Assembly: GCA_036679645.1 (NCBI GenBank)
Contig: JAZDCY010000026.1
Coordinates: 8,818-72,817 of the forward strand
Reading direction: 5' to 3'
From: Gemmatimonadota bacterium
GTDB lineage: Bacteria; Gemmatimonadota; Gemmatimonadetes; Gemmatimonadales; GWC2-71-9
DNA length: 64,000 nucleotides
The notes under the pieces were generated by a model that was not told where the DNA came from, ran no database searches, and worked only from the letters and a program-made list of their open reading frames with translations. Shown here one piece after another: positions 9,934-62,994 of the stretch. The position numbers and the translations under genes are program-made. The stretch's first letter is position 1. Every line of letters begins with the position of its first letter.

Positions 9934-10078
9934 CTCGTTCGCAAGTATGGACTTCGGTGCAGCGGGCCACAAGGAAACCGCTACCCGTCAGCCAACCGTG
10001 GTGTGCGGCGGTCAAGAACCGGTCAATTCGCGTCGCTGACCCGCGCGCCCGTGGCGGGCCGGCGATAGGTTTGGAGCC

Positions 10079-19026: not shown

Positions 19027-19175
19027 CATCGTCCGCGCGCCTGCATGACGCGCCGCGAAGGATCGAGGGCATCCTCAGCGCCCACCCGTCCCCGCACGTA
19101 CTATTGAATAGCCTCGCTCGGCCCGGCCGAGCTTCCCGCACAATCCATGACCCAACCCACGAGGCCGGAACGCTC

Positions 19176-33600: not shown

Positions 33601-36600
33601 TGGAGCGTCGTCCTCGCCGCGAGCGCCGGCGTGCTGTCCGCCATTTCCAAGCCGGGGGCGTGGCCGGTCGCGGGACCGCTGGTGCTCCTCTGGATCCTGG
33701 CGCCGGTTCTCACGTGGCGGCTCAGTCTTCCGCGGAGGCCCGCCGAGCGCCAACGCCTGTCGCCCAATGAGACACGTGCGTTGCGGCTCGTCGCACGACG
33801 GTCTTGGCGTTTCTTCGAAACGTTCGTAAACGATGAAGAACGCGCGCTCCCGCCCGACAACTTCCAGGAAGACCCGGAACCGGTCGTTGCCCACCGCACC
33901 TCGCCCACCAACATGGGGCTGTACCTCCTGAGCACCATGGTGGCACACGACTTTGGCTGGATAGGAATCCTGGACATGGTCCAACGGCTCGAGGCCACGC
34001 TGCATACCATGACCGGCCTCCGCCGTTTCCACGGGCACTTCGTAAACTGGTACGACACGAGAGATCTGCGGCCGTTGGAGCCCCTGTATATCTCCACCGT
34101 GGACAGCGGCAATCTGGCGGGGCATCTCATCGCATTGGCACAAGGGTGCCGCCAGTTCACTCGTCAACCGCTGCTGGGCCCCCAGATACTCGAGGGGATC
34201 CGCGACGCGCTGCAGCCGGTACTCGACTCGGCCGAAAAGGCCGCGTTTCACCCGCGCGCGGAAACGGTCACGGGCCCGCAGGCTCGTGAGGCGTTGGAGG
34301 CAGTGGCTTCCCTGCTGGACGATCCCCCGACGTCGCAATCAGAATGGGTTCGCCGGTTCGATGAATTGGAGACCCGCGCGGAGAATCTCCTGGACATTGC
34401 TCACACGCTGTCGACCAGCATCGAGGGCAAGTCCGAATCGGAGATCCTCGTCTGGGCGACGGCCGTGCGCGACACCGTCCGCAGCCATGCGCGCGATCTC
34501 GCGATGCTTCGCTCGGAAACCGATGAGGCATCTGAGGCGACGACCGCCACGCTCGAACACCGTCTCTCCGCCCTCGCGCTCCAGGCGGGACAGATGGCCC
34601 GCGCGATGGACTTCCGATTCCTGTTCGACCCGTCGCGCAAGCTGTTCTCGATCGGTTTCCGTGTGGCCGACAACACGCACGACCCCAGCAGCTACGATCT
34701 GTTGGCCTCGGAGGCGAGACTGGCGAGTTTCGTGGCCATCGCCAAGGGGGATGTCTCGCCACGACACTGGTTTCTCTTGGGCCGCGCCCTCACACCGGTA
34801 GGACGCGGCGCAGCGCTGATCTCGTGGTCGGGATCGATGTTCGAGTACCTCATGCCGCTCCTCGTCATGGAGCAGCCCGCCAGTAGCCTGCTCGATCTGA
34901 CCTGTCGCCTTGTGGTTGAGCGACAGATTCGCTATGGCGCGGAACGGGGCGTCCCCTGGGGAGTATCCGAGTCGGCGTACAACGTGCGCGACGTCGAGCT
35001 TACGTATCAGTATTCCGACTTCGGCGTGCCTGGTCTGGGACTCAAGCGCGGGCTATTCGAGGACGTGGTAGTAGCACCCTACGCTACGGCACTCGCGGCC
35101 ATGGTAAACGCAAGAGCCGTCGTTGACAACATGGCTCGTCTGGAGGAAGCGGGAGCGCGCGGCAGCTACGGATTTTACGAGGCGTTGGATTTCACACCGT
35201 CGCGCTTGCCCGAGAAGCAAGAGGTGGCCGTCGTGCGCGCGTACATGGCCCACCATCAGGGAATGACGATCGTCGCGTTGGGGAATGTCGTTCATGGCGG
35301 TCTGACCCAAAGACGGTTCCACGCGAATCCCACGATCCAGGCGGCGGAGTTGTTGCTGCAGGAACGCACGCCACGTGCGGTGGCCGTGGCGCGGCCGCGC
35401 GGCGAGGAAGTGCAGGTGGCCGCCCACGTCCGTGAATTGGTGCCACCGACCTTGCGACGCTTCGAATCGCCGCACGACATATCGCCGCGTACCCATCTGC
35501 TCTCGAATGGCCGGTACGTGGTCATGGTAACCGCGGCTGGCTCCGGCTTCAGCCGGTGGCGTAACCTTGCCGTTACTCGATGGCGTGAGGACACGACACG
35601 CGACAGCTGGGGCACATTCATCTTCCTGCGGGATGTGAAGACCGGCGACGTCTGGTCTGCCGGATTCCACCCGAGCGGCACCGAAGTGGATCACTACAGC
35701 GTGGTCTATGCGGAAGATCGGGCCAAGATCATGCAGCGCGACCGATCGCTGTCGACGACGCTCGAGATCGTGGTCTCGCCCGAAGACGACGCCGAGTTGC
35801 GCCAGCTCACCGTGACCAACCTGGAAACCCGTGATCGAGAGATCGATGTCACCTCCTATCTCGAGGTGGCGCTTGCGCCGCAGGCGGCGGACGAGGCGCA
35901 TCCCGTCTTCTCGAATCTCTTCGTGGAAACCGAGTTCGTGCCCCGGTTCGACACGCTTCTGGCCACTCGTCGCCCGCGTTCGGCTGACGAGGTCACGCCG
36001 TGGCTGGCTCACCTCGCCGCGATCGAGGGGGAAACGGTGGGCGCCTGCCAGTACGAGAGCGATCGCGCCCGCTTTCTCGGTAGAGGTCGCGCGATCCGTG
36101 CACCGCTCTCGGTGATCGAGGGAGAGCCACTCACGAACAGTGAAGGAGCGGTGCTGGATCCGATCATGAGTCTCCGCTACCGGATCGCAATTCCGTCCGG
36201 CGGCACCGTCCGTATCGTGTTCACCACGCTGGTGGCACCCACCCGCGACGAAGCCCTCGATGTCGCGGAGAAGTACCGCCACGTCGGAACGTTCGAGCGT
36301 GAGAGCTCGCTGGCGTGGATGTACGCGCAGGTCCAGTTGCACCATCTCCGGATCACGCAGGACGAGGCGCATCTCTTCCAACGGCTCGCCAATCGCCTGC
36401 TGTACAGCGATCCCACCCTGCGCGCGACGCCACAGGACCTGGCTACCAACCGTCTCGGGCCGTCCGGGCTTTGGGCTCACGGCATCTCGGGCGATCTGCC
36501 AATCGCGGTCGTGCGCGTCGAGCGGGAGGAAGAGCGGGACGTCGCGCGACAGCTGCTGCGAGCCCACGAGTACTGGCGTCTGAAAGGGATCGCCGCCGAC

Positions 36601-43440: not shown

Positions 43441-46068
<2,628 letters not shown>

Positions 46069-46872: not shown

Positions 46873-47577
46873 TCACCTTTCCGCGCTCAGCGCGGTGGTG
46901 GAACGCGGCTGGTTGAGGTAGCTCACCAGCGCCGAGATCTCCCGGTCGTCGAGGCCCAGGTCGGGCATCGTCATCCCGTCGTTGCTCGCGGCGCGGAAGC
47001 GCGCCGGATCGGCCAGCTTCGTGGCGAGCCACTCGGCGGGATACTGCCGCCCGGTCAACTCTGGACCCACGCGCAGCTCGTTCCGCTCGCTCGCTGCGGG
47101 GTCGTCACGTTTCATGTGGCAGGTGACGCATCCCGTCGCGACGAATAGCTGGCGGCCTCGGTCGACCGACCCGAGCGCCTGCCGCGTCCCTCCCGTGGGA
47201 ATCACCCGGACCGGGAGTAACGTGATTCGGGACCCGCGAAAATCAGCGTCGATGGTGATCGACACGGCTCCGGCTTCGACGGCCGTGATGGTTACCTGGT
47301 AGACACCGGGACCGGCACCGGGACTTGGGCTGGCGCTGACGCGCCGGCGCTGCCAGGGCCAGCGGGAGCCCTCCCGCCGCACGGTAACCGTGGGGGAGCG
47401 GCCGCTCAGGAGTTGCTGGCCGTGCTGGCGAATGGTGAAGGTCAGGGGGGTTGGCCGACCCACCTCGAGGTATTCCGGCAGGTCGCGCACGGTGATGACG
47501 GTCCAGCCGCCGAACTCAGCCGGGCTAGCGGCCGTCAGCAGCAGGCCTAGCCCTATGGTCCCGATGGCACGTCGCAT
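46873..47577 (-). CDS. Exported c-type cytochrome with N-terminal Ig-like domain
   Basis: Signal peptide, GRQLF..GCVTCH, GPEL, distal Met in MPDL. Confidence 0.85.
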   Translation of the reverse strand: MRRAIGTIGLGLLLTAASPAEFGGWTVITVRDLPEYLEVGRPTPLTFTIRQHGQQLLSGRSPTVTVRREGSRWPWQRRRVSASPSPGAGPGVYQVTITAVEAGAVSITIDADFRGSRITLLPVRVIPTGGTRQALGSVDRGRQLFVATGCVTCHMKRDDPAASERNELRVGPELTGRQYPAEWLATKLADPARFRAASNDGMTMPDLGLDDREISALVSYLNQPRSTTALSAER

Positions 47578-47596: not shown

Positions 47597-48664
47597 TCAA
47601 CGAATGGCCCAGTTCCAGATCCGGCGACCGATGCGCGTCAACCACGGTTGCGCCTCTTCCGACCACATGGGGTACAGATCGGCCCGCCAGCGTTTGAGCA
47701 TTCGACGGTCGAGCGCCAGGATTCCTTCCATCGTCACGCCGGAGGGCGGTGCGGAGAGGCTCACGAGGCGCGGGTACACCCGTCGGCGGTCATCCGGGTC
47801 CACCCGCTGCAACAGGTGCCACAGCGTGATCCAGCTGCGGTGCCGGAGCGTGATATTGTGCGACGCCGTGTACATGGCGGCGAGGACGACGTCGAGATCG
47901 GTCGCGGACCCCTCCCCCGTGTCCAGCCGATGCAGGGCCGCGCGCGCGTCCTCGGCCAGTTCCACCGCGTATGGCGTGCCCGGCCGGTGCCCTAGCTGCA
48001 CCTCTGCAATGAACCCGGTCGGTACGAGTGATATGTCGTCGCCCTGCTTCAACTCCACCCAACCGGAGGTTACGTGCAGCCAACTCGTTCCGGCACTGTC
48101 TACCTCCAGGGTGTACGCGCAGCCGAGGTCGGTTGCCAGCACGGAGGGCGTCTCCACGAAGAAGAGCCGCGGCGGGGCGCTGATCACGGCGTGGAGCGAC
48201 CCGCGCTCGACGGTCAGCCGGTGCGCCGTGAGACCGGCCCGGTCGAGGCGAACGCGACTGCCGGGCCCCACCTCCACCGTCCCGATCCGGCCGACGCTGA
48301 GGCGGGCGCTGGAGACGGCGTCGGTCACGAGCCATTGCCCGGTGGTGAGGGCGCCGGCCTCGGTCAGTGGGTCGCCGGCCACCGCGGGAGCGCCGGCCAG
48401 CGGCACCACCTTCCAGGCAGACGGCGCACGGTACGCGCGCAGGAGCCCCGCGGTGCCACCACCCACGATGGCGAGCAGCACGGCGGCCGCCGCGAGCCAC
48501 GGCGATCTTACCTGGCGTCGGACGAACCGGACCGCGCGACCGTCGACCGGAGCATGCACCTCGGTCTGGATCCTCTCCCAGAGCGCGTCAGGCTCCGGTG
48601 GGGAGTTGAGCGGGAGGTGCCGCAGCAACTCCTCCAACTCCCGGGGCTCAGGCGTCTGTGACAT
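47597..48664 (-). CDS. FecR-like transmembrane anti-sigma factor
   Basis: LWERI, TM WLAAAAVLLAIV, FecR-like beta region (ERG, VETPS, DLGCAY, VTSGWV); overlaps the sigma gene. Confidence 0.8.
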   Translation of the reverse strand: MSQTPEPRELEELLRHLPLNSPPEPDALWERIQTEVHAPVDGRAVRFVRRQVRSPWLAAAAVLLAIVGGGTAGLLRAYRAPSAWKVVPLAGAPAVAGDPLTEAGALTTGQWLVTDAVSSARLSVGRIGTVEVGPGSRVRLDRAGLTAHRLTVERGSLHAVISAPPRLFFVETPSVLATDLGCAYTLEVDSAGTSWLHVTSGWVELKQGDDISLVPTGFIAEVQLGHRPGTPYAVELAEDARAALHRLDTGEGSATDLDVVLAAMYTASHNITLRHRSWITLWHLLQRVDPDDRRRVYPRLVSLSAPPSGVTMEGILALDRRMLKRWRADLYPMWSEEAQPWLTRIGRRIWNWAIR

Positions 48665-49241
48665 CGAGAGGCTCCTCTGGCGGCGGGTGGCCTGGGTGAA
48701 GGTGCGCGAGCTGGCGCGCCAGGATCGCGTGCGCGCGACTCAACCGCGAGGCGATGGTGCCGACCGAGCAATCGAGCGCCGTCGCGATCTCATCGTATGA
48801 CAGATCGTCGAGGTAGCGGAGCAGCACCGCGAGCCGCAGCTTGGGCGAGAGGCGGGAGACCGCCACGGCCACCTCGCCGCTCAGGTCGGTCGGGTCCGCC
48901 GGTTCCACCGCGGGATGGATTGCCGAGGGGATGTCCCCGAACAGCACCACGCGCCGACGGCGACGCAGCTCGTCGATGCATGCGTTGGCCGCGATCCGGT
49001 ACAACCAGGTCGAGAACCGGGCGTCGGTCCGGAACCCATGCGCGGCCCGGAAGGCCTTCACGAATACCTCCTGCGTGACGTCCAGCGCAGCGGCGTGGTC
49101 GCCGCGCAGGTAATGCAGGGCGACGGAATACACGCGGTCCCGATACCGCTCGTAGACCCGGCGCTGTGCTTCGGGATCGCCCCGGCGGCAGCCTTCGAGG
49201 ATGTCGGCGTCGAGTTCCGGCTCCGCCACGAGGGTCTCCAT
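48648..49241 (-). CDS. ECF sigma-70 factor
   Basis: DVTQEVF, FSTWLYRIAANACID, LSYDEIA...GTIASRLSRA. Confidence 0.94.
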   Translation of the reverse strand: METLVAEPELDADILEGCRRGDPEAQRRVYERYRDRVYSVALHYLRGDHAAALDVTQEVFVKAFRAAHGFRTDARFSTWLYRIAANACIDELRRRRRVVLFGDIPSAIHPAVEPADPTDLSGEVAVAVSRLSPKLRLAVLLRYLDDLSYDEIATALDCSVGTIASRLSRAHAILARQLAHLHPGHPPPEEPLDVTDA

Positions 49242-49299: not shown

Positions 49300-52200
49300 C
49301 TACGGTGGCAGTAGCCGGCGGCCCGGCGTCCACGGCGCGCCTGCCGCTTCGAGTGCCTGCTCCAATTGCGAGAGGTCGCGGTCCAGAGCCGACAGTTCCT
49401 GAAGCAGGGCGCCGAAATCGCTACTGGCGATCTCGAGATTCCGCCGCTGCGTCGCAGTGGGCGCCTGCCGCGTGTTCCAGTGCCCATCAATCACCCGCGC
49501 TACTCGGCCACGAATCGACGGCACGCTCGGCTCGTTCAACTGCCCGCGGATGCGGTCTCCCGAAAGCGCCGTCCGCAATTCCGTCAGCGCCGCGCCGAGC
49601 GTATCGATGCGTGCAAAGAGCACGGGATCAGCAGCGGGCGTCTCGACGAGCGCCGCGCGCATGTGACGTAGCCTGTCCCGCGCCCGGCTAATCTCCTCGC
49701 CTGCGCCGGCCACGCGCCGCATCAACTCGCTCGTCTCCTGTTGGAATACGGCCACCGCACGGAAGTCCGTGCCCGGCGGCGCTGAGGGTACGGGTTTCAC
49801 CTCGAACGACTGCGCGCTGCCGAGTGATTGCACGCCGGCGCTCGAGAACAGCATCAATTCGACACTGTACCGACCGGGTGGGACGAGCGGTCCTTGTGGG
49901 GGCGTCACCCAGGGTGGCGAGAAGTCCGGCGTCTCGAACTCGACCGGGTTCGGCGCCGGCCGACGCAGATCCCAGCTCACGCGGTGGAGCCCGACCTTTA
50001 CCGGTCCCTCGACCCAGCGTATCGGCTGACCCTGCGCGTCGCGCACCATGAGCAACACACGCGGTTCACCCTCGATGGCTTCACGCAGGAGGCGATCGTA
50101 GCCGGGAAACGGCACGTCGTCTCCGCCGTCGCGCAGGTCGCCTTCGGCAGCGCGACGTGCTTCGCGCTGGGTCGGTGGCACCTCGTCGAGGTAGTACGAG
50201 AACACCGCACCGAACGGCGGGTTGGCGGCACGATAACTGTCACTTCCCAATGTGGGCATGCCCCGCGCCTGCATCGGCTCGTTCGGGATGTACCACCACG
50301 TATCCCGTACCGGAAAGAGTGTGCTGCCGGCCAGCGCGCCGGCCGCCATCTCACGGAGCGGCGCATAGTCGTCCAGCACGTAGAACCCTCTTCCGAACGT
50401 GACACCCACGACGTCCCCGTCGCGCCGCTGAATCTTGATGTCCCGGAATGCGATCGTGGGAGCCCCGTCGAGCCTGATCCAATTGGTGCCATGGTTCAGC
50501 GTGACGTACAGCCCGAATTCCGTGCCGAGAAAGATGAGGTTGGGGTTCACGTGATCCTGCTGCAGCGCCCAGACGATGGTGCCGGCTGGAAGGTCCCCGG
50601 CAATCGAGCGCCAGCTGCGCCCGCGGTCGGTGCTCTCGAACACGTACGGCGTCTGGTCGCCGGTCTTGTGCGCGTCCGCGACGGCGAACACCGTCGCCAC
50701 ATCCATCTGCGATGCCTCAACATCATTGATGAAGGAAAAGTCCGGAACGTTCGGGAGGTCGGCCGCAACACGCCAGCTCTGTCCACCGTCCTCGCTCACC
50801 TGAATCAATCCGTCGTCGGATCCGGTATAGATCACGCCCTCCTCGACGGGTGACTCCGAGATCGCGGTGAGCGTGGCGTACCACGACATCGCACTGTTGC
50901 CGTAGAGCGCATCCACGCTCCACACCCGTCCCATCGACTCCAATTCGTACCGATTCTGGTTACGGGTGAGGTCGCCGCTCAACACCGTCCACGAGTTGCC
51001 ACGATCCTCGCTACGCCACAGGCGCTGCGAACCAAAGTAGAGTCGGTTGGCCGCGTGTGGGCTGACGAGAATGGGCGCGTCCCAATTCCAGCGCTCGGGA
51101 GCGTCGCTGGGCGCAGGCTGTGGCTTGATGTCGAGCGCCTCATTGCTGCGACGATCCACCCGAACGAGGTTACCTCGCTGCCACTCCATGTACATGACGT
51201 GGGGATCGCCAGGATCAAAAGCCACGCCGTACCCGTCCGCTCCCAACGGGACATACCAATCCTGGTTGCGTACGCCATCTGTGTGCATCGTCCGTGACGG
51301 GCCGAACAGCGTACCAAGGTCCTGCGCCCCGCCCAGCACGTTGTAGAATGGTTCCGCGTTGTCGAGCGCAAGCTTGTAGAACTGAGATACCGGCAGGTTC
51401 GGGAAGTGACGCCACGTGGCACCCTCGTCGAAGGTCTCATAGAGGCCGGCATCGGTACCCACGATCAGGTGCAATCGATCGTGCGGGTCGATCCACAGTG
51501 CGTGGTTATCGCTATGCTTCGCGTGCCCCGTTTCCAGGTAGTCGAACGTCGCGCCACCGTCCCGCGTGACGTGCACGAATACGTCCATCTGATAGACGAG
51601 ATCTGGATCGTGCGGTGACGCCTCGATCTCCTGATAGTAGTGCGGGCCGGTGCCACCGGAGAGGTAGGCGTTGCGCCGCTCCCAGCTCTCACCCTTGTCC
51701 AGCGACCGGTAGAAACCGCGCTCTTCTTCTTCGTTCGCTTCGACCGTGGCATACACGATCTCCGGACTGGCCGCGGACACCGCGAGACCAATCTTCCCCA
51801 TGTCGCCCTCTGGGAGCCCGACCTCGAGCCGTCGCCACGTCTCGCCGCCGTCGGTCGACTTGTAGATCCCGGACTCGGGGCCGCCCGCCAGCAGCGACCA
51901 GATGTGACGACGGCGCTGATAGGCGGCCGCGTACATCACGTCCGGGTTCGACGGATCGAACTCCACGTCCGTGACGCCCGTGTTCTCGGAGATCGTGAGC
52001 ACCGCGGTCCACGTCTCGCCACCATCCGTCGTCCTGTACAGACCGCGCTCGCCACCCGCTGCCCACAGCGGGCCCTCCGCTGCGACGAACACCACGTTAC
52101 CGTCTCTGGGATCGACGAGGATCTTGCCGATGTGCTCCGATGTTTCGAGCCCCATCCCATCCCAGGAGCGTCCGCCGTCGCGACTGCGATAGACACCACT

Positions 52201-52578
52201 CCCCCAGCCCACGTGCCGGCCGCTAACGTTCTCGCCGGTGCCGACCCACACGACGTCGGGATTGCTCGGGTCGAGCGCCACGTCGCCAATGGAATACGAC
52301 GGTTGGTCGTCGAAGACGGGCGTCCAGGTAACGCCGGCATTGGTAGTCTTCCACAACCCGCCGGATCCCACGGCCACATACCATGTGCTGCGCTTGTCAG
52401 GGTGCACGGCGATATCGGCGATCCGGCCGCCCATGAAGGCTGGTCCGATGCCCCGCAGCGTCAGGCCTGACACTGCCCGTGAAACCATCTCCGGGGTTTG
52501 AGAGGTCACACTCGCTACGGGAGCGAGAGCGAACACGATCAGGAAGGCTAGTGCTGCCTGACGGGCGCGATTACTCAT
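49300..52578 (-). CDS. Secreted VPS10/BNR-repeat glycosyl-hydrolase-like protein (paralogue of 19176..22502)
   Basis: Signal peptide, IGPAFMGGRIAD, Asp-boxes, GGAQD, C-terminal GAPWTPGR. Confidence 0.88.
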   Translation of the reverse strand: MSNRARQAALAFLIVFALAPVASVTSQTPEMVSRAVSGLTLRGIGPAFMGGRIADIAVHPDKRSTWYVAVGSGGLWKTTNAGVTWTPVFDDQPSYSIGDVALDPSNPDVVWVGTGENVSGRHVGWGSGVYRSRDGGRSWDGMGLETSEHIGKILVDPRDGNVVFVAAEGPLWAAGGERGLYRTTDGGETWTAVLTISENTGVTDVEFDPSNPDVMYAAAYQRRRHIWSLLAGGPESGIYKSTDGGETWRRLEVGLPEGDMGKIGLAVSAASPEIVYATVEANEEEERGFYRSLDKGESWERRNAYLSGGTGPHYYQEIEASPHDPDLVYQMDVFVHVTRDGGATFDYLETGHAKHSDNHALWIDPHDRLHLIVGTDAGLYETFDEGATWRHFPNLPVSQFYKLALDNAEPFYNVLGGAQDLGTLFGPSRTMHTDGVRNQDWYVPLGADGYGVAFDPGDPHVMYMEWQRGNLVRVDRRSNEALDIKPQPAPSDAPERWNWDAPILVSPHAANRLYFGSQRLWRSEDRGNSWTVLSGDLTRNQNRYELESMGRVWSVDALYGNSAMSWYATLTAISESPVEEGVIYTGSDDGLIQVSEDGGQSWRVAADLPNVPDFSFINDVEASQMDVATVFAVADAHKTGDQTPYVFESTDRGRSWRSIAGDLPAGTIVWALQQDHVNPNLIFLGTEFGLYVTLNHGTNWIRLDGAPTIAFRDIKIQRRDGDVVGVTFGRGFYVLDDYAPLREMAAGALAGSTLFPVRDTWWYIPNEPMQARGMPTLGSDSYRAANPPFGAVFSYYLDEVPPTQREARRAAEGDLRDGGDDVPFPGYDRLLREAIEGEPRVLLMVRDAQGQPIRWVEGPVKVGLHRVSWDLRRPAPNPVEFETPDFSPPWVTPPQGPLVPPGRYSVELMLFSSAGVQSLGSAQSFEVKPVPSAPPGTDFRAVAVFQQETSELMRRVAGAGEEISRARDRLRHMRAALVETPAADPVLFARIDTLGAALTELRTALSGDRIRGQLNEPSVPSIRGRVARVIDGHWNTRQAPTATQRRNLEIASSDFGALLQELSALDRDLSQLEQALEAAGAPWTPGRRLLPP

Positions 52579-52603
52579 CGGAGTTCCTCGTTGTTGCGTG
52601 ACT

Positions 52604-54535
52604 CTATCCGATCTGGCCGAGCCGCTTCACGAGCTCGCCGGCGGTCTGTACACGGTCCTCGGGCGCCTTCGCCAGCAAGGTCATGATCACCGTGGAGAGG
52701 GCGGGCGGGATCTCGGGATTGACCTCGGTGGGCGGGACCGCGTGCTCCTGCAGAACCTTGGTGATAAGGGAGACCGGAGTGCGCCCCTCGAACGGCAACT
52801 TCTGCGTTGTGCATTCGTACAGCACCACGCCGACCGCGTAGAGATCGCTGCGTGCGTCAACACTTTCCGAAAGCAGTTGCTCCGGCGACATGTAGCTTGG
52901 CGTACCAACGATGAGTCCGGTTTCAGTCAGCGTGCTGGATCGCTCGGCGAGCCGGGCGATCCCGAAGTCCATCACCTTGAGCACGCCATCGTCGTCCAGC
53001 AGCAGGTTCTGCGGTTTGATATCACGATGGATCACGCCGTTCTCATGTGCGACGACCAGTGACTCGGCGAGCTGCGTGCCGATCGCCAACGTCGATTGTG
53101 GCGTCAGCGGACCCCGGAGATCCACGAGCTGCCGGACCGTAATCCCCTCGACGTACTCCATCGTCAGGTAATACACGCCACGCCATTCCCCAAAATCGTG
53201 TGTGCGCACGACATTCCGATGAGAGATACGGCGCGCCAGGCGGATCTCGCTCTTGAATCGCTCAATGAGCGCGTCACCCACCGCAAGCAACTCCGGTCGC
53301 AGCGTCTTGATGGCCACGTCCTCGTCCAGTTCCAGATCGCGCGCGCGGTACACGGTACCCATGCCCCCCGTGCCGATCACCGACACGATCTCATAGCGCT
53401 CGCCGAATCCCTGCCCCTCCTCGAGGCTGCCACCGTCGAGCAACGCGACTTTCTCCTGCGAGGTCCGCGCAATCCCGATATCCATACGCAATTCGTTCAG
53501 CCGGTCCTGTAACCGGGCCTCGCGCGTGCGTACCTCTGCTGCCATCCCGTCGAACACGCGCGCCAGGTGTCCCAACTCGTCGCCCCGTTGCGCCACGTCC
53601 GCAAGCATCCCGGTTTCGTACCGGCCCGCTTCCACCGCCGACGCCGCCTCGACGAGGCGCGTCACCTGCTGGAGGTCATTCAACTCCTTGTCACGGTGGC
53701 GCTTCTTGTCGAGTGACGCGCTGATCCGCGCACGCAACAGGACGACGTCGAACGGTTTCGGCAGAAAATCCTCCGCCCCCGCCTCGATACATCGCACGAC
53801 ACTCGGCATATCGTCGAGCGCCGAGATCATGATGACCGGGATGTCACGCGTCGCCGCAGCCCCCTTGAGTTGCGCCAGCACTTCATAGCCATCGATGTCG
53901 GGCATCATGACGTCGAGCAACACCAAGTCGTACCGACCGGTGGCGGCCATCTCCAGGGCCCTCCGCCCGCCCTCGGCACATGCCACCGCGTAGCCCTCGC
54001 GCTCGAGCCGGCGGCGCAGCACCTCACGGTTGTCCTCGACGTCATCCACCACGAGCATCGTCGGGGCCTGCTCGCCGCCGCCCGCGTCCGTGGATCGTGT
54101 CTCGCAATCGGGCTGCACCGGATCTGCCAGCATGCCCGCAGGAATCAACTTTGCCGCGGCGCCGAGAATCCGGTGGAGATCGGACGTGAATTCCCGGTCG
54201 GCGGCGGGCTCGGTGAGTCGGAGCAATCCTTCAACCGAGCGGACGATGCGCTGCTGTGGGTCGCGCAGCGAACGGTACAGTTCCGCCACCTCTTCGGCCC
54301 TGATCCCGTCACTGCGCCCGCCGAGCAGGCGATCGATCAGGGCAAGCAGGTCGCGCGCGGCGGCGAGTGTCTCTTCGAGCGCCGCCCGGCGCGGCGCAAG
54401 CGACGGCTCCGCCGCGTCTTCGAGCAGCATCTCGGCGTAACCGACAATGTGATTGATGGGGGTACGGAGGTCGTGCCGCAGCTCGGCGGTGGATTCCGGC
54501 GTCAGCGGCGCATGGGGTTCGGCAAACGAGGTCAT
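52604..54535 (-). CDS. HisKA (no ATPase) - REC - HAMP-like - Ser/Thr kinase fusion
   Basis: [20 protein letters not shown]...LLDVMMP...ISA...[41 protein letters not shown]. Confidence 0.9.
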
Positions 54536-54902
54536 TGTGTGCGTTGCAGCAGCGCCTCGATCTTCGACAACAACCGCGGCAACTCGATCGGCTTGGTGTC
54601 GTAGTCGTCGCACCCCGCCTCGATCGCTCTCTCGCGGTCTCCCGCCATCGCGTGCGCTGTGAGCGAATGATCGGCACGGCGGCGGTCTCCGCGGACGCAC
54701 GCAGCTGCCGCGTGGCGTCCCATCCATCGATCTCCGGCAAACTCATGTCCATCAAGATCACGTCATACCCACCTTCGCGGGCCTTGTCGATTCCTTCTTG
54801 CCCATCGACCGCCATCACAACATCGTAGCCCTTCCGCTGCAAGCGGCGCGACAGCATGTCACGGTTCATCTCGTTGTCCTCGACCAGCAGAATACGCGGC
54901 AT
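54532..54902 (-). pseudogene. Single-domain response regulator (DivK-like) with a 1-nt deletion near 54665
   Basis: ILLVEDN...LMDMSLP...VPII, then in another frame [11 protein letters not shown]...GCDDYDTKP; one added G restores VPIIALTA. Confidence 0.88.
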
Positions 54903-57029
54903 CTAATCCGTCTCCCCATTTTGCGTGTCCGTCAGGCGTAGTTCCGCCGGGAGGCGGATTGTGAAGATCGACCCGTGGCCGGGCTCGCTCTCCACGAGCA
55001 CGTCGCCGCCCATCATATGGCAAAAACGACGGGTGATGGCTAGCCCCAACCCCGTTCCGCCGTAGCGGCTCGTGGTCGATGCCTCCGCCTGGGAGAAAGC
55101 CTCAAAGAGCCGGTCCATCTGCTCCGCCGTCATGCCGATCCCGGTATCGCCCACCGCGAACGTGACCACCTCGCGCTCGTCCGTCGTAGCCCGCGCGACC
55201 GACAGCGTGATGGTCCCGTGGTCGGTGAACTTGGCCGCGTTGGAAAGCAGATTGAGCAACATTTGCCGAACCTTGGTGAGGTCCGTATGCATGGTTCCCA
55301 GGTCATCAGGAATGCGTACCTCGAACCGGTTCTCGTTCTTGTGCACCAGGGGCTCCACCGTCGCGGCGACCTCCCGCACCATCGCTCCCGCCTGGAAGGT
55401 CTCTGCGAACAGCTCCATCTTCCCTGCCTCGATCTTGGACAGATCGAGCACGTCGTTGATGAGTGACAGTAGATGTCGGCCAGCCGTGTGGATCTTCGCG
55501 AGATCGGACGAAAGGCTCTCGTGGCCCAGGTCCTCGACATCCTCCTGCAACATCTCGCTGTACCCGATGATGGCATTGAGCGGCGTGCGCAACTCATGGC
55601 TCATGCTGGCAAGGAACTGGCTCTTGGCACTGTTGGCGGCTTCGGCATCACGCCGCGCACGCAGTAACTCGGTGATATCATGGTACAGCCCCATCAGGCC
55701 CACGCGCTCGCCGTCGACAATCACCGGCACCCCCAAGATCTCGACGTCGACCATCGTGCCGTCCTTGCGGCGGCGCCGTCCCATGCCTCGCACCGCGTGA
55801 TCGAGCGCCTCGCGGGTGTACCCCATCGCCTCCGCGCGCGTTGCTTGGGTCGTAATCAGGTCGTCGAGGTTGCGGTCCACTGCTTCCGCCTGCGAGTATC
55901 CGAAGAGCTGCTCAAAGGCAGGATTGCACTCGACGACCATGTACTCGCGATTCAGCGTCACGATAGCGACCGGACTGTTCCGTACGAGTTCGCCGAAGTA
56001 CTGCTGCTGCCGTTTCGACGTCGTGTAGAGCCGTGCGTTCTCGATCGCGATGGCGGCCTGCGGGGCGAAGAGGTTGAGCAGTCGCAGATCCTCTTCATTG
56101 AAGACGTGATCGGGATCGGCGTGGACGGTCGCGATGGCGCCCACGAGCCGGCGCCCGATCAGCAACGGGGCCGCCATGACCGAATGCACCATCACGTCGG
56201 CGTATTGGGCCGATTGTCCCAACCACTCGTGATACGAAGGGATTATGAGCGGCTCGAGACTCTGTGCGACCGCGCCCATCGCGCCTTCACCGGGCTTGAT
56301 GCGGGTACCGGTCGAGTCCTTCCCGATACGGTCGCTCGCGACGACCACGAGTTCCTCGGCTTCCTCTTCATAGATCGCGACCTCCCCTCCCGTCACCCCG
56401 AGCAGGGCCACCGCGCGCGCAATCACCGCCTGGAGCACCTTCGAGAGTTCCAGTTCCGACGACAGGTCGGCCATCGTGTCGAGCAATGCCTTGTGCTCGT
56501 CCGCGCGCCGCCGCTCTGCCATGAGGAGACGAGCGCGCTCGATTGCGATGCCGGCATGGTTGGTAGCGGCTTCGAAGATCTCGAAGTCCTCCTCGCCGAA
56601 CGCGTTGGTTTCGGCGCTCTCTACCACGAGCACGCCGATCGTCGTACCGTTCACGCGTACCGGGATGTCGACCTCGGATCCGCTGGCGAGGCTCGGCAGG
56701 TATTGCGATTCGCGCGTTACATCCGGTGTATAGCGCAGTTGGCCGTCGATGACCGCTTGCGCACTCAATCCTTCCCCGCGGTGCACCCGCATGTCAGGCG
56801 GCACGTCCGGCCACCCCACACTAGCCCGGAGCACGCGGTCGCCGGTCTCCTCATCGACCAGGAACAGGCCGAGAAAATCGTATCCCAACGCCGTGTCGTG
56901 CAGTCCGCTTACCACGCTCTGGTAGACCTCATCCTCGTTATGCGTCGCGGCGATTGCAGCGCTCAACCGGAACATGGCCGTCTGGCGGCGGGCGACGACG
57001 GTCTTATCCGAAGGCGACACGCTCGTCAC
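54903..57029 (-). CDS. Soluble histidine kinase GAF-GAF-PAS-HisKA-HATPase
   Basis: [33 protein letters not shown] and PAS (NPAFE) motifs; no TM. Confidence 0.94.
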
Positions 57030-59947
57030 GACGCCGCGCCCGCGGCCGGACGGTCGGTATGGGCTGAGACGAGGCCTCGGATGCGCTGCAGCAATTCCTC
57101 GCGCTTGTAGACGCCCTTGCGCAGGATATGCTGCACGGCGCCGTTCAGCCGCCGATGATCGTCGGCGCTGAGGTCTTTCGCGGTGATAACGACGACCGGG
57201 ACCGACGACGACGGACCTTTGCGCAACGATTCGAGAAACTCGAATCCGTCCATCTCGGGCATCATGAGATCGAGCAGCACCACCTCCGGCGGCGCCTCGG
57301 CGACGCGCTCGAGTCCGATCCGCCCGTTCTCTGCCTCGACCACCGTCCAGCCGTCGCGCTCGAGGACGCGACGAGAAATGTCGCGTACCGACGGATCGTC
57401 TTCGATCACGAGCACCGTCCCTTTCCCCGCCCCCGCCCGCTGGCTGTACTTCGCGACGACCGCCGACAGGCGATCGCGATCGATGGGTTTGGTGAGATAC
57501 TCCGCGGCGCCGAGTGTCATGCCGAGCCGTTCGTCATCCTGAATCGACAACATGACGACGGGGATCTCCGCTAGAGACCGATCGGCTTTGAGCGCGCTCA
57601 ACGTGCCCCAGCCGTCCATCTCCGGCATCAGCACGTCGAGCGTGATCACGTCCGGCTGCAGCGTGCGGGCGCGTTCCAGCCCCTCCCTCCCGTCGGCGGC
57701 CTGCTCCACGCGATACCCTTCTTTGCGGAGATGTCGGGTGATGAGGTCTCGGGCCGACGCGTCGTCGTCGACCACCAGCACGAGACCGCGCGCGTCGGCC
57801 ACGGGAGCCGGTTCCTCCCCTGCGGTCGTGAGGGTCGTCTCCACCCGCTCAGGTGCCGTGGCCGGCAGCCGAACGGTGAACGCCGAGCCCTCGCCCGCCA
57901 CGCTCTCGACCGTCACGGTGCCGCCCAGCATGCGACACAACAGCCGGCTGATCGCGAGTCCCAGCCCCGACCCGCCAAATCGGCTCGCCGTCGATGCTTC
58001 GGCCTGGGCAAAAGCCTCGAACAGCTTGTCGAGCTGTTCGGGCGTCATCCCAATACCCGTGTCTGACACGCGGAACGTGAGCCAGTCGCCCGTCGCGTTG
58101 GTGGTACGGTTCACCGCTAGCGTGATGGCGCCCGCGTCGGTGAACTTCGCCGCATTGGAGAGCAAGTTCAGCAGCACCTGGCGCAGCCGCGTCGCGTCGG
58201 AGCGCATGACCCCGAGCGCATCCGCAAGCTCCACCGCGAGGCGATTGCCGTTTTTGTCGATCAGCGGTTGCACCGTGGTCACGACCGATTCGATGGTGGG
58301 GGCCACCTCGAACGTCTCGACGTGCAGCTCCATCTTGCCCGCTTCGATCTTCGACAGATCGAGTACGTCGTTGATCAGCGTCAACAGATGTTTGCCCGCC
58401 GAGTGGATGCGTGTGAGATCCGACGCCGACTCCGCCTGTCCGCCGTCTTCAGCATCCTCGATCAGCATCTCGCTGTACCCGATGATGGCGTTCAGCGGCG
58501 TGCGCAGCTCGTGACTCATGTTGGCGAGAAACGTGCTCTTGGCTGCGCTGGCGCGTTCCGCGGCCTTGCGGGCCTGGAGCAGCTCGGTGACATCGTGATA
58601 CAGCCCCATGATGCCGACCCGTACCCCGTCGATCATCACTGGGACGGCAAGGATCTCGACATCGACAAGTGACCCGTCCTTGCGGCGCCGTCGCCCGATG
58701 CCCTGAACGGGTCGCGTCACAGCTTCCTGGGTGTAGCTGCGCGCCTCGGAGCGGGTCGCCTCGGTCGTGATGAGGCCGTCGAGGTTCTTGCCCACGATCT
58801 CGTCTTCGGCATACGCGAAGAGCGTCTCGAACGCCGGATTGCAACCCAATACGTTGTGGTCGGCGTCCAGCGTCACGACGGCGACGGGACTGTTGCGCAC
58901 CAGCTCCTCGAAATATCGCTGCTGGCGCCGCCCCTCGGTGAACAGGCGCGCGTTCTCGATCGCCACCCCGGCCTGCGGGGTGAACATGTTCATGAGACGG
59001 AGATCCTCGTCGCCAAAGCGCCGGGTGGCATCGGCCGTCCACGCGCTGAACGCCCCCACGAGTCGACCACCAACCAATAGGGGGGCGACGATCACGGCGT
59101 GCGCCTCGACGTCAGCGTACTTGTCGGAGGCCCCGGTCCACGCTTTGTAGTCGTCGATCAGCAGCGGCTCGCGGGTGCGGGCAACCTCCCCCATTGCACC
59201 CTCGCCCAGTGCGAGTCGCGTCCCGACCGAGACCCGGCCCGAGCGTGAGTTGGCCACGATCTCCAGTTCCTGTTTTTGTTCGTCGAAGATTGCCAACTCG
59301 CCCGCGGAAGCATCGAGTAGAGAGATGGCGCGCTCGAGCACGGCCTCGAGGAGCTTGGGCAATTCCAGCTCGCGGGAGAGGGCGCCCAGCGTATCGAGCA
59401 TCGCTTGATGCTCGTCGGCACGGCGTCGCTCCGTCTGCACGGCGTGTTCGTGTTGTGCAATGAGCCGCGCCCGGCTGATCGCGATGCTCACCTGAGTCGC
59501 GGCCGCGGTCAGGATGCCGAGATCGTCGGAGCTGAACGCGTCGGGCTGGCCGCTTTCGACCACCAGCACACCGACCGGCCGGCTGTCGATCACCAGCGGC
59601 ACATCCACCTCGGAACCGGTCTCGAGACCGGGGATGTAGCCGGGTTCGTTGGCCACCTCGGGACTGTAGTGCAGCTTCCCGTCGCGCAACGGCCGGTCGC
59701 TCAAGCCCTCGCCTTTGGGCAGACGCAGTCCGTCGGGGATGTCCGTCCAGCCCACACCGGCCTGCATGATGCGGTCGCCGGTCTCTTCCTCTACCAGGAA
59801 AATGCCGACGAAGTTGTAGCCCAGGGATTCGTCACGCAGTCCCGCCACCACGCGCCGGCAGATCTCCTGCTCGTCGGTAGCGGCGGCAAGGTCGGCGCTG
59901 AGTCGCAAGAGCGCCGACTGGCGGCGGGCAGCTCCGTCGTGTGGCAC
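57026..59947 (-). CDS. Soluble hybrid histidine kinase GAF-GAF-PAS-HisKA-HATPase-REC-REC
   Basis: Same N-terminal architecture; SHELRTPLN; two receivers ([16 protein letters not shown]); GGAG before GTG 59947. Confidence 0.94.
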
Positions 59948-60322
59948 AGTTCTCCGAGTGAAAGAGTCGGGAAGATACCCTGGGACGGCGGCACCTTCCA
60001 GCAAGAAGCGGCCGGAGACGGTGTAGTGCGCCGAAACGAGCCCGAGGTCTTGGTTTCCAAGTGTAGATACCGCAGCGAGTTAGGGGACTTCGCGACGACG
60101 TCGCGGGTGGGGAGGCAACGACCTGTTCCACTGCTTCGCGGTCAACTGACCCGATCCTATTCACTTCTGCCCAGCGCCACGTGTCCTTAGGCGGCATCTA
60201 CACTGATGGGCCGGCAACAGGGATCGATTGGCCCATGCCGCGAGTTATAGTACTATCCGGTCGAGGAATTGGTCGGAGGTCGTACAATCCGGCAAACGAA
60301 CGGGGCCCGTACGGAGGCATCT

Positions 60323-61471
60323 GTGGACGAGTATCACGACGACATCATATATCCGGCGCGCATCCCGTTCCTGCTCGTCCACCTCGTCTGTTTCACCGCC
60401 ATCTGGACCGGTATCACGGCCGAAGCGCTGGTCATCTGCGCCGTGCTCTACCTGGGCCGCATGTTTGCCGTCACGGCGGGTTACCATCGCTATTTCTCGC
60501 ACCGGTCGTTTCAGACCAGCCGCCTGGGCCAATACGTGCTCGCGTTTGTGGCGCAGAGCTCAGCACAGCGCGGCATTCTCTGGTGGGCCGGTAAGCACCG
60601 GCACCACCACAAGCATTCCGATTCCGTGCTGGACGTTCACTCACCCAGACAGCGTGGCTTCTGGTACGCGCACATGGGGTGGATCTTCGTTCGCGGGCAG
60701 ACCAAGACGGACGTCAGCGTAGTTCCCGATCTCGCCAAGTTTCCGGAACTCATGCGGCTCGACAGGCACCCGTATGTGCCCGCGACGGCGCTCGGCGTGC
60801 TGGTCTGGCTGTTGGCGGGATGGCCCGGACTGATCGTCGGATTCTTCTGGAGCACCGTCCTGCTGTACCACGGCACGTTCGCCATCAACTCGCTGGCCCA
60901 CGTGCATGGCAACCAGCGCTACGTCACGGGCGACGATTCCCGCAACAACTGGTGGCTAGCGTTGATCACGCTGGGCGAGGGGTGGCACAACAACCATCAC
61001 GCCTATCAATCGTCCACACGGCAAGGCTTCCGTTGGTGGGAGATCGACATCACCTACTACGGGCTCAAGCTGCTCTCCTGGGTTGGTATGGTCTCGCACC
61101 TGATCGAACCGCCCAGGGCGCTGGTCCACAACGAGGCGAAGCTGGGTCGACGCGTGGTAGAGAAGGTGGCGCGGCAGCTCGCCGGCACGCTCGCGGTGGA
61201 GGGGATTGGTGCGCGAGTGCGCGAGGCATGGGCCAACACGCCCACGTTGGCTGAGCTGCGCGTCCGTGCGCAACAGGCGCGGTCGGACGCGGTGGCGATG
61301 TTGCAGGACATGCACCTGCCGGATGTGCCCAGTCTCGACGAACTCAGTGCCCGGGCGCACGAGATGTTCAGCGCGACACCGTCGATGGACGAGATCGTCG
61401 CGCGGGCTCGGGAGTTGATCCTCGAGGCACTGACGACAGAACTGCTGCTGCCGGAAGCCGCACAAGCCTAG
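60323..61471 (+). CDS. Delta-9-type membrane fatty-acid desaturase with helical C-terminal tail
   Basis: His boxes HRYFSH, HRHHH, HNNHH; GGAGG before GTG. Confidence 0.92.
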   Translation: MDEYHDDIIYPARIPFLLVHLVCFTAIWTGITAEALVICAVLYLGRMFAVTAGYHRYFSHRSFQTSRLGQYVLAFVAQSSAQRGILWWAGKHRHHHKHSDSVLDVHSPRQRGFWYAHMGWIFVRGQTKTDVSVVPDLAKFPELMRLDRHPYVPATALGVLVWLLAGWPGLIVGFFWSTVLLYHGTFAINSLAHVHGNQRYVTGDDSRNNWWLALITLGEGWHNNHHAYQSSTRQGFRWWEIDITYYGLKLLSWVGMVSHLIEPPRALVHNEAKLGRRVVEKVARQLAGTLAVEGIGARVREAWANTPTLAELRVRAQQARSDAVAMLQDMHLPDVPSLDELSARAHEMFSATPSMDEIVARARELILEALTTELLLPEAAQA

Positions 61472-61536: not shown

Positions 61537-62994
61537 GTGCTCAGTAAATCCCGCTTCACGGCCGGCTGGCAGTGCCACAAACTCCTCTGGTGGAAGGTCC
61601 ACGAGCCCGACGCCGAGGAACTCCAACCGGACAAGGTGCTGCAAGACCTCTTCGACCAGGGCCACCACGTGGGCGAGGTCGCGCAGGACCGGTTCCCCGG
61701 CGGCGTGCTGATCGATCTGCCGTACTACGAACGAGAGAAGCGCGTCACCCGGACCAGGGAGGTCATCGACGCCGGGGCGCCCGCTGTATTCGAGGCGACC
61801 TTCGTTGCCGACGACACGTTCGTCGCGGTCGATGTCCTCGAGCGGCTGGATGAAGACGGCTTCCGCCTCATCGAGGTGAAATCTTCAACCTCACAGAAGG
61901 ACGAGCACATCGCGGACGTGGCGATTCAGGTGCACGTCGTACGAGCGAGTGGTGAAGCGGTGCACGGTGCACGGGTGATGCACCTGAACAAAGAGCATCG
62001 CCATCCCGACACAAACGATCTCTTCGCGCAGACTGACGTGACGGAAGAGGTCGAGGCGTTGCTCCCAAGTCTTCCGGCGGAGATAGCGCGGCAGCTCGAG
62101 ATGTTAGGTGGCCCGCTGCCCGAGGTCTCGATCGGTCTCAACTGCTACGAGCCACGCAAGTGTCCCTTCTTCGAACGCTGCTGGCCCCAGGACCGCGACC
62201 ATATCTCGAAGCTCGTGGGTTATGGACCCAAGAAGACCGGCCGTGCCGTGCAGAAAGGCGTCCACAAGATTGGCGATCTCCCCGAACGGACCAAGTTCAA
62301 CTTCACGCAACAGCGTCAGCTGAAGGCGTTGGCGGAGAACCGTATTGTCGTCGAACCGACCCTTTCCGAAGAGCTGAAAGCCTTCGACTGCCGTCTTGGA
62401 TTCTTGGATTTCGAGACGATCATGCGTGCCATCCCAGTGTGGCCCAACATGAGGCCGTGGCAACAGGCGGCGGCGCAGTTCAGCTATCACGAGTTACAAC
62501 CGGACGGCACGTACGCGCACGCGGAGCATCTCGCCGAGGGACCGCAAGACGCCCAGCCACCCCTCGTCGAGGCAATGGTGCGGGCGACTGCGCACGCCGA
62601 GCGCGTGGTGATGTACACGTCGTTCGAGAAGACGCGGATACGCGAGCTGCAGAAGGCGGTACCGGATCTCGCCGAGGAACTAAAGGAGCTGGAACACAAG
62701 CTCATCGACCTTCATCCGGTCATCAAGAACACGGTCTACCATCCCGACTTTCGCGGGAGTTTCAGCCTCAAGTACATCCTGACGCCGCTCGTGCCCGATC
62801 TCACATACGACGATCTGATCATCGTGGACGGCATGATCGCCAGTGTCGAGATCGCGCGGCTGCTGTTCGTGGCGGACAGGATTCCGCAACACGAGAAGGA
62901 TAGGGTGCGGCAGGATCTTCTCGACTACTGCGAGCGGGATACGTGGGCGATGGTGAAACTGTTGGAGCGATTGCGGGAGTTGGCGGCGGCCTAG
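61537..62994 (+). CDS. DUF2779-type protein: RecB/Cas4-like nuclease plus RNase H-like domain
   Basis: LSKSRF..GWQC, VDVL...IEVKSST, D..IQ, C-x5-C-x5-C, LDFET, SFSLK, YCERDT. Confidence 0.85.
   Translation: MLSKSRFTAGWQCHKLLWWKVHEPDAEELQPDKVLQDLFDQGHHVGEVAQDRFPGGVLIDLPYYEREKRVTRTREVIDAGAPAVFEATFVADDTFVAVDVLERLDEDGFRLIEVKSSTSQKDEHIADVAIQVHVVRASGEAVHGARVMHLNKEHRHPDTNDLFAQTDVTEEVEALLPSLPAEIARQLEMLGGPLPEVSIGLNCYEPRKCPFFERCWPQDRDHISKLVGYGPKKTGRAVQKGVHKIGDLPERTKFNFTQQRQLKALAENRIVVEPTLSEELKAFDCRLGFLDFETIMRAIPVWPNMRPWQQAAAQFSYHELQPDGTYAHAEHLAEGPQDAQPPLVEAMVRATAHAERVVMYTSFEKTRIRELQKAVPDLAEELKELEHKLIDLHPVIKNTVYHPDFRGSFSLKYILTPLVPDLTYDDLIIVDGMIASVEIARLLFVADRIPQHEKDRVRQDLLDYCERDTWAMVKLLERLRELAAA

Follow-up and report, generated by a model that had tools for sequence, protein, structure and literature searches.

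The window analysed here, a 64,000-nucleotide stretch from a Gemmatimonadota bacterium (GenBank assembly GCA_036679645.1, contig JAZDCY010000026.1, positions 8,818 to 72,817), contains a cassette of four minus-strand genes at 52604..59947. The cassette encodes two sensor histidine kinases, a single-domain receiver (the lone REC) and a protein that fuses a tandem dimerisation and histidine phosphotransfer (DHp) bundle to an output REC domain and a Hanks-type Ser/Thr kinase. It is real and conserved, and uncharacterised as far as we have searched, and its histidine module is possibly new. We give about an even chance to the proposal that the cassette acts as a four-step phosphorelay, in which phosphate would pass from a kinase His to the lone REC Asp, then to His21 and Asp208 of the fusion, with subsequent control of the fused kinase through a HAMP/coiled-coil segment. 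The four genes are:

57026..59947, minus strand: HK1, a hybrid histidine kinase of 973 residues, predicted soluble (GAF-GAF-PAS-HisKA-HATPase-REC-REC)
54903..57029, minus strand: HK2, an HK1 paralog of 708 residues and a predicted soluble histidine kinase (GAF-GAF-PAS-HisKA-HATPase)
54532..54902, minus strand: the lone REC gene, which carries a frameshift here (a base is missing between 54666 and 54665)
52604..54535, minus strand: the fusion, P0001, 643 residues (tandem DHp bundle, flexible linker, REC, HAMP-like/coiled coil, Hanks Ser/Thr kinase)

HK1 and HK2 share a GTGA overlap at 57026-57029, HK2 and the lone REC gene abut at 54903/54902 (TAG followed by ATG), and the lone REC gene runs into the fusion gene with an ATGA overlap at 54532-54535. 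An earlier, sequence-only reading of the stretch had described these coupled genes and junctions, and re-reading the sequence bore them out. That reading had also allowed for a chimeric join between REC and kinase. A chimeric assembly can be ruled out, as a single Logan contig (7161 bases, depth 101, from a run that may be the source sample) spans 52300-54891, and with it the join, with 0 differences and 0 gaps, and 119 homologs carry both REC and Pkinase. For the cassette we found no match to a sigma-70-type promoter or a terminator and none to plasmid sequences at 1e-40, and no RNA dataset is among the listed holders of its sequence.

The fusion is divided by Pfam into HisKA (residues 16-71, 35.8 bits), REC (161-271), HAMP (290-336) and Pkinase (381-630, 172 bits) domains, with no HATPase. 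Its homologs were collected using residues 10-370 as query, and the figures given here refer to the best 119 non-self of 6308 matches. REC and Pkinase are present in 119/119 of these, HisKA in 118/119 and the HATPase domain PF02518 in 0/119, so that the HisKA-REC-Pkinase architecture without HATPase proposed by the sequence-only reading recurs in all but one; the fusion itself lacks the HATPase_c domain that follows HisKA in a histidine kinase. The HAMP match, at 24.7 bits (E 2.9e-5), is just under the cut-off of 25, and PF00672 is listed in 7/119. Pfam finds no SpoIIE domain either, and the layout is not that of HsbR (see below). The parts of the fusion are:

54149..54499, minus strand: tandem DHp hairpins, residues 13-129 (helices 13-40, 44-71, 80-107 and 114-129)
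53702..54061, minus strand: output receiver domain, residues 159-278 (D164, D165, phospho-acceptor D208, S238 and K260 invariant)
53468..53692, minus strand: HAMP-like helices and coiled coil, residues 282-356, predicted to be continuous with REC helix 5
52610..53395, minus strand: Hanks-type kinase domain, residues 381-642 (GxGxxG, K410, E430, HRD 503-505, DFG 523-525, T537, T545)

Conservation was scored on an alignment of 117 sequences, with three partial or over-long homologs left out. H21, T25, P26, N28, D164, D165, D208, S238 and K260 are invariant in 117/117, as are the kinase residues G388, G390, G393, K410, E430, H503-D505, K507, N510, D523-G525, P551 and E552 and the activation-segment threonines T537 and T545. 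The REC-to-HAMP junction is invariant or nearly so. Judged by sequence, the fusion qualifies as a Hanks-type Ser/Thr kinase, with its Gly loop, Lys-Glu pair, HRDxKxxN, DFG and xPE motifs, and the intact REC, HAMP-like helix and complete kinase first described for it are upheld by the Pfam matches and these residues. Foldseek finds the kinase fold to be PknB-like (E 6.5e-25, 39% identity to M. tuberculosis PknB), and the nearest solved relative of the output REC is PleD.

Frames with a Ser/Thr kinase number about 112 in this genome and those with a receiver 60, and no other protein of the genome joins these two domains. Many of the approximately 112 Hanks-kinase frames of the 4.05-Mb genome are recent tandem paralogs, on contigs C7, C8, C9, C66 and C68, and the cassette kinase stands outside this expansion. 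In a kinase-domain tree built by a quick method only, a group with a support of 100 unites 14 HAMP-type fusion kinase domains and excludes 92 further kinase domains from the genome. P0306 and P0334, which carry bundle, REC and kinase without HAMP, fall outside that group, suggesting that they are separate kinase fusions; because the tree is a quick one and both lie on long branches, separate origins are a suggestion only.

The N-terminal region of the fusion is predicted by AlphaFold2 to form the four helices listed above, followed by a low-confidence linker (residues 133-154) that leads to the REC. When folded alone, residues 11-133 reach a predicted local distance difference test score of 95.0 and a predicted template modelling score of 0.88. 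Aligned with hhalign (E 8.2e-5, probability 61%), the two hairpins are in register and His21 (54473-54475) lies opposite position 88, where the second H-box has lost its His. Here position 88 is Arg, and nowhere in the kinase family is it conserved as His. Many kinase-less relatives have a recognisable H-box in both repeats, and nearly all representatives detected by pattern keep the first-repeat His. In the cyclase P0245, three tandem bundle modules (six hairpins) precede the REC, with the His kept in the second hairpin of each. As the hairpins align in register, many kinase-less relatives keep both H-boxes and P0245 repeats the module, we read the N-terminus as a duplicated DHp hairpin; one chain alone is predicted to make up the four-helix bundle for which histidine kinases need a dimer. 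The sequence-only reading had seen here an H-box with no HATPase; the HATPase is indeed absent, but the H-box is only half of a duplicated two-hairpin module. The bundle H-box is identical to those of the cassette's two kinases at 14/20 positions, and the next best of the 30 HATPase-bearing frames of the genome reaches 11/20, which suggests that the bundle descended from a kinase of the cassette type.

The identity of this module was examined further against known phosphotransferases. By sequence profile, a histidine phosphotransfer (Hpt) domain was rejected, as PF01627 gives no match at E <= 0.001 and the region matches HisKA instead. The bundle does have the conserved His in a DHp-type helix that characterises the ChpT/Spo0B class (H21 in 117/117, HisKA at 35.8 bits), and its sequence profile matches solved DHp domains across about the first hairpin. 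The likeness to ChpT drawn in the sequence-only reading nevertheless fails: there is no domain resembling the catalytic and ATP-binding (CA) domain, and a second helical hairpin and then the REC stand in its place, within a predicted single-chain tandem bundle. A Foldseek search with the bundle returned no match at E <= 0.001. VIA-align returned TTYH3 as its best match (Z 14.1, root-mean-square deviation 2.8, 118 aligned residues), followed by designed bundles; its 50 listed matches include neither an Hpt nor a DHp entry. Such matches to generic four-helix bundles do not show that the fold is new.

The order of the cassette is conserved in relatives. A class-level scan matched 26/201 genomes at 1e-40, of which 20, this one included, matched at 1e-78 or better; we compared 18 of the 19 other strong loci and, from the 6 weaker matches, 2. 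All 18 strong loci encode one or more GAFn-PAS histidine kinases (up to three within the stretches compared), an intact lone REC and then the fusion, so that the gene order singled out for checking by the sequence-only reading holds in 18/18. No kinase carries a REC in 4/18 cassettes, and the constant partner is therefore the lone REC rather than the hybrid RECs. The two weaker loci have membrane-anchored HisKA-HisKA'-REC-cyclase proteins adjoining similar kinases. In a wider set of 80 genome-contig loci, 45 encode a REC-HAMP-kinase (42 titled Gemmatimonadota and 3 Acidobacteriota), and the lone REC lies directly upstream in 40/45. Three of the five misses are cut by the contig start, one (L079) has the REC with a frameshifted fusion, and the last (L086) is a REC-HAMP-kinase locus without bundle, lone REC or sensor kinase. 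Among 28 metagenome loci, 22 have the bundle, with a full-length lone REC upstream in 22/22, and the other 6 are ordinary kinases. These three sets overlap and are kin, so their counts are not independent. Named homologs of the fusion are mostly from Gemmatimonadota, in keeping with the phylum of the window. Besides L079, cassettes L108 and L122 also have frameshifted fusion or sensor kinase genes, by decay or assembly error.

The two sensor kinases agree with the description given in the sequence-only reading, as Pfam recovers a hybrid histidine kinase with two RECs and a second histidine kinase; it adds GAF-GAF-PAS sensor arrays in both, which that description had missed. HK1 starts at a GTG codon with GGAG upstream, and D, S/T and K are intact in both of its C-terminal receivers, REC1 and REC2. 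Solved relatives of the GAF and PAS domains are distant only (best E 4e-11) and are of DosP, NifL, DevS and cyclase GAF types. A 19-residue hydropathy scan shows no convincing transmembrane segment in the cassette proteins (best values 1.4-1.8, versus 2.6 in a membrane-anchored relative), and Pfam shows no DNA-binding domain in them, in agreement with a soluble system that has no DNA-binding effector.

The lone REC gene is where it had been reported, but in this genome it is not intact. Its frame 1 comprises residues 1-79 and matches Pfam positions 1-74; positions 76-111 are in the other frame, and the rest of the domain, including the active-site T and K and helices 4-5, falls outside frame 1. 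Compared with a genome of the same genus (G201, 84% DNA identity), the window has a single gap, the missing base listed above, and the gene is intact both in G201 and in G172, also of this genus. The Logan contig carries the identical frameshift, with no other allele listed at a 1% threshold; this contig may rest on the same reads as the window, and contigs drop rare variants. With a second assembly at depth 101 in agreement and no second allele, a sequencing slip is an unlikely cause, and the site has no obvious slippery sequence. Of 60 listed REC-bearing frames in the genome, this is the only one split into two pieces across frames, and the HK1, HK2 and fusion genes are intact. The frameshifted product would lack the conserved active-site Thr and Lys, and this copy of the lone REC is probably crippled. 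Because of the frameshift, the relay is probably interrupted here, leaving a bypass or no input, and this genome's copy is therefore a poor model of the cassette. The nearest solved relatives of the lone REC are PleD REC1 and DivK.

In the relay that we propose, the GAF-PAS histidine kinases would phosphorylate the lone REC, which would pass the phosphate to His21 of the predicted single-chain bundle. From His21 the phosphate would go on to Asp208 of the tethered receiver, and Asp208 would in turn switch the fused kinase through REC helix 5, the HAMP segment and the coiled coil. The kinase pair would then undergo dimer-driven trans-autophosphorylation on T537/T545, a step that we infer together with the sign of the regulation; dimerisation activates bacterial Hanks kinases (PMC6213207). 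This proposal is supported by the conservation of His21, Asp208 and the kinase residues in 117/117 while the second-repeat His is lost, and by the presence, linked in 18/18 relatives, of an autokinase, an intermediate REC (frameshifted here), a second His and a terminal REC. A common docking code throughout the cassette would be required of a REC that takes phosphate from the kinase and gives it to the bundle. The H-box match between the bundle and the two cassette kinases fits such a code, and helix 1 of the output REC is closest to that of the lone REC among the 53 other RECs scored (38, next 29; 8 further RECs of the genome could not be parsed). There are also precedents for the order kinase, single-domain REC, DHp-type His and regulator, in Pak-SdrG-PhyT-PhyR of Sphingomonas melonis (PMC5898713) and in MrrA-PhyK/LovK of Caulobacter (PMC5964349), where several kinases converge on the single-domain receiver. 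Those systems use a separate phosphotransferase and end on PhyR and the general stress response, whereas the cassette has a tandem HisKA fused to its target REC and a Hanks output.

Several observations weigh against the relay. A shared docking code equally permits direct transfer from kinase to Asp208, and at six docking positions of the REC interface the lone REC only ties with an unrelated REC (11 and 11). The His step is dispensable in relatives, since in three related cassettes (L084, L111 and L118) the kinase and the lone REC are accompanied by a REC-HAMP output without the bundle, and P0190 and P0205 are bundle-less REC-REC-HAMP-kinase proteins. The Thr at H+4 that HisKA phosphatase activity requires (PMC3510030) is invariant, as T25. 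In this genome the lone REC is broken and its three companion genes are intact. A FATGUY-like motif at beta4 marks the intermediary receivers SdrG, MrrA and CpdR (PMC9981736); the lone REC lacks it, with the consensus IALTAHA at this position (39 sequences). Across 48 downstream regions no conserved gene points to a substrate, and the only large shared group (about 8) occurs where unrelated kinases lie. Both receivers resemble PleD and DivK. The wiring of DivJ/PleC-DivK-PleD is branched, with DivJ/PleC acting directly on DivK and PleD.

A cassette wired on that branched model is the main alternative, though we consider it less likely than the relay. Both the lone REC and Asp208 would then be direct targets of the histidine kinases. 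The bundle would reset Asp208 as a built-in phosphatase or reversible phosphate sink, with the lone REC as a competing sink or an allosteric partner, and the output would still be REC-controlled Ser/Thr phosphorylation. This would account for the invariant H-(D/E)-x-x-T, a HisKA phosphatase signature, for PleD as nearest solved relative of both receivers and DivK as another of the lone REC, and for the retention of the lone REC in bundle-less cassettes; a broken lone REC would be tolerated, and phosphatase or phosphotransfer/phosphoacceptor roles have been proposed for archaeal HisKA proteins without HATPase (PMC5847659). However, His21 is invariant and the first-repeat His is nearly universal in the representatives noted above, a REC-tethered bundle would tend to cover the kinase-docking face, as PhyT sequesters PhyR (PMC5898713), and in L086, the only bundle-less orphan kinase fusion, the lone REC is absent too. 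An improbable arrangement is one in which the kinase is independent of Asp208, active through constitutive HAMP/coiled-coil dimerisation and feeding back on the bundle, the RECs or the sensor kinases, which would make the fusion a scaffold or feedback device instead of the output of a relay. Kinase-less chassis proteins with a conserved coiled-coil tail do exist, and the chassis therefore functions without an enzyme; there is also no conserved substrate gene nearby, and two-component proteins are often phosphorylated on Ser/Thr (PMC12189002). Such an ungated kinase is hard to square with the near-complete conservation of the REC active site and REC-to-HAMP junction, and the cyclase, PP2C, HD, sigma-54 and histidine-kinase outputs found at the same position follow the usual pattern of REC-gated effectors. 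More improbable still is a route from the kinase His through REC1 or REC2 of HK1 to His21 and Asp208, with the lone REC as a side branch. The intact residues of both RECs would permit it and it would survive the frameshift in this genome, but 4/18 cassettes have no hybrid REC, and helix 1 of the output REC scores just 19 and 24 against REC1 and REC2, compared with 38 against the lone REC. The His-Asp relay with built-in phosphotransfer and a Ser/Thr kinase at its end, as first suggested from the sequence, therefore stands in part: it fits the invariant His21, Asp208 and kinase residues and the fixed gene order, whereas the ChpT likeness has failed, branched wiring is possible and the receiver is frameshifted here.

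The tandem bundle and REC also occur with other outputs. In a scan of 77 of the 150 best cluster representatives (about 400 residues or more), a class III cyclase is present in 33, a HATPase in 26 (a few of these being ordinary kinases), a SpoIIE domain in 4, a Pkinase in 3 and an HD, AAA_35 or sigma-54 domain in 1 each; in 8, nothing else is recognised at 1e-9. Among named loci there are also cyanobacterial ones with ParA/MinD outputs, and in several phyla the protein ends in a coiled-coil tail without an output. The cyanobacterial tandem-HisKA-REC-HAMP fusions to ParA/MinD-type ATPases (L100:7131-9347, L102:6324-8867 and L110:450-2699) are each followed by a REC-HisKA-HisKA-REC-REC protein. 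A Pseudomonas protein (L105:7662-9227) joins a REC and part of the HAMP-like linker to EamA transporter domains. Tentatively, and at somewhat less than an even chance, we suggest that histidine phosphotransferases include, besides Hpt domains and dimeric pseudo-kinases, a third structural class, the tandem-HisKA bundle, in which duplication of the cassette kinase's hairpin would have turned a DHp dimer into a single chain. Together with its dedicated lone REC it would form a portable relay, plugged into cyclases, histidine kinases, PP2C, HD, sigma-54 and ParA ATPase outputs and Hanks kinases, the last of these probably more than once.

The cassette shares features with several characterised systems. 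Its kinase has the fold and motifs of PknB/Stk1 kinases and is likely activated by dimerisation as they are, but it has no membrane anchor or PASTA repeats (no PASTA match), and its regulatory module is N-terminal and cytoplasmic; against NF033483 (Stk1/PknB PASTA kinases) the fusion scores 333.9 bits, below the cut-off of 450. With DivJ/PleC-DivK-PleD of Caulobacter it has in common a single-domain REC and a REC-gated enzyme, and PleD REC1 and DivK as nearest solved receivers. In contrast to that system, the cassette has no GGDEF domain, its kinases are soluble GAF-PAS proteins that score 161.6 against the DivJ model (cut-off 1000), and its His bundle has no counterpart there. In Spo0F-Spo0B-Spo0A of Bacillus, as in the cassette, a DHp-type His without autokinase activity lies between two receivers, and both ChpT and Spo0B are homodimers. 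The kinase of Pseudomonas HsbR is GHKL-type, and REC-Pkinase fusions are reportedly a rare class in response-regulator censuses. ChpT, in CckA-ChpT-CtrA/CpdR (PMC9981736), likewise places a DHp-type His without autokinase activity between two receivers; it consists of DHp-like and CA-like domains, unlike the cassette module, which has no CA-like domain and is predicted to be one chain with one His. HptB-HsbR-HsbA (10.1101/2024.11.25.625174) is a multistep His-Asp relay to a receiver that controls Ser phosphorylation, so such control is not itself new. HsbR, however, is a REC-PP2C-kinase/anti-sigma factor served by a separate Hpt, whereas the cassette has a Hanks-type kinase, no phosphatase domain and no linked substrate gene. 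What differs from the known systems is the Hanks-type output and the predicted single-chain His bundle. A full-text literature search, covering few subscription journals, found no description of tandem HisKA bundles or of HisKA-REC-Hanks kinase proteins, in line with the sequence-only reading, which had named no characterised system of this layout; the words 'tandem' and 'Pkinase' are absent from 10.64898/2026.02.27.708494.

Around the cassette, the gene for a 1092-residue BNR/VPS10 repeat protein (49300-52578, minus strand) follows the fusion gene in the same orientation after 26 bases. It is not conserved there in relatives (sequence shared by 1/47 regions), and a paralog lies at 19104-22502. 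Upstream and divergent are a fatty acid desaturase (60269-61471, plus strand) and a DUF2779 protein (61537-62994, plus strand). Two Ser/Thr kinases of the window are typical of the genome's expanded kinase family, one with a PD40 beta-propeller (43441-46068, minus strand) and one with TPR repeats (7510-9972, minus strand). The minus strand further encodes an extracytoplasmic function sigma factor (48648-49241), a 355-residue protein without Pfam match that looks like its anti-sigma partner (47597-48664) and a cytochrome c protein (46873-47577). A 2877-residue protein on the plus strand (30694-39327) combines glucoamylase-like and GH94 domains, the layout of cyclic beta-1,2-glucan synthases.

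Described crosstalk in bacteria mostly runs from Ser/Thr kinases to two-component proteins (PMC12189002). If the relay operates as proposed, a His-Asp pathway that directly gates a Hanks kinase would run in the reverse direction, in a system that is small, soluble and easily reconstituted, and the fusion would be a direct converter of His-Asp into Ser/Thr signals within one bacterial polypeptide. The single-chain DHp bundle would be an overlooked phosphotransfer or phosphatase module, labelled merely 'HisKA' in databases, and would offer a natural asymmetric DHp for mechanistic studies. It would also call for a new reading of the many proteins in which a bundle and a REC are joined to a cyclase, phosphatase or kinase output.

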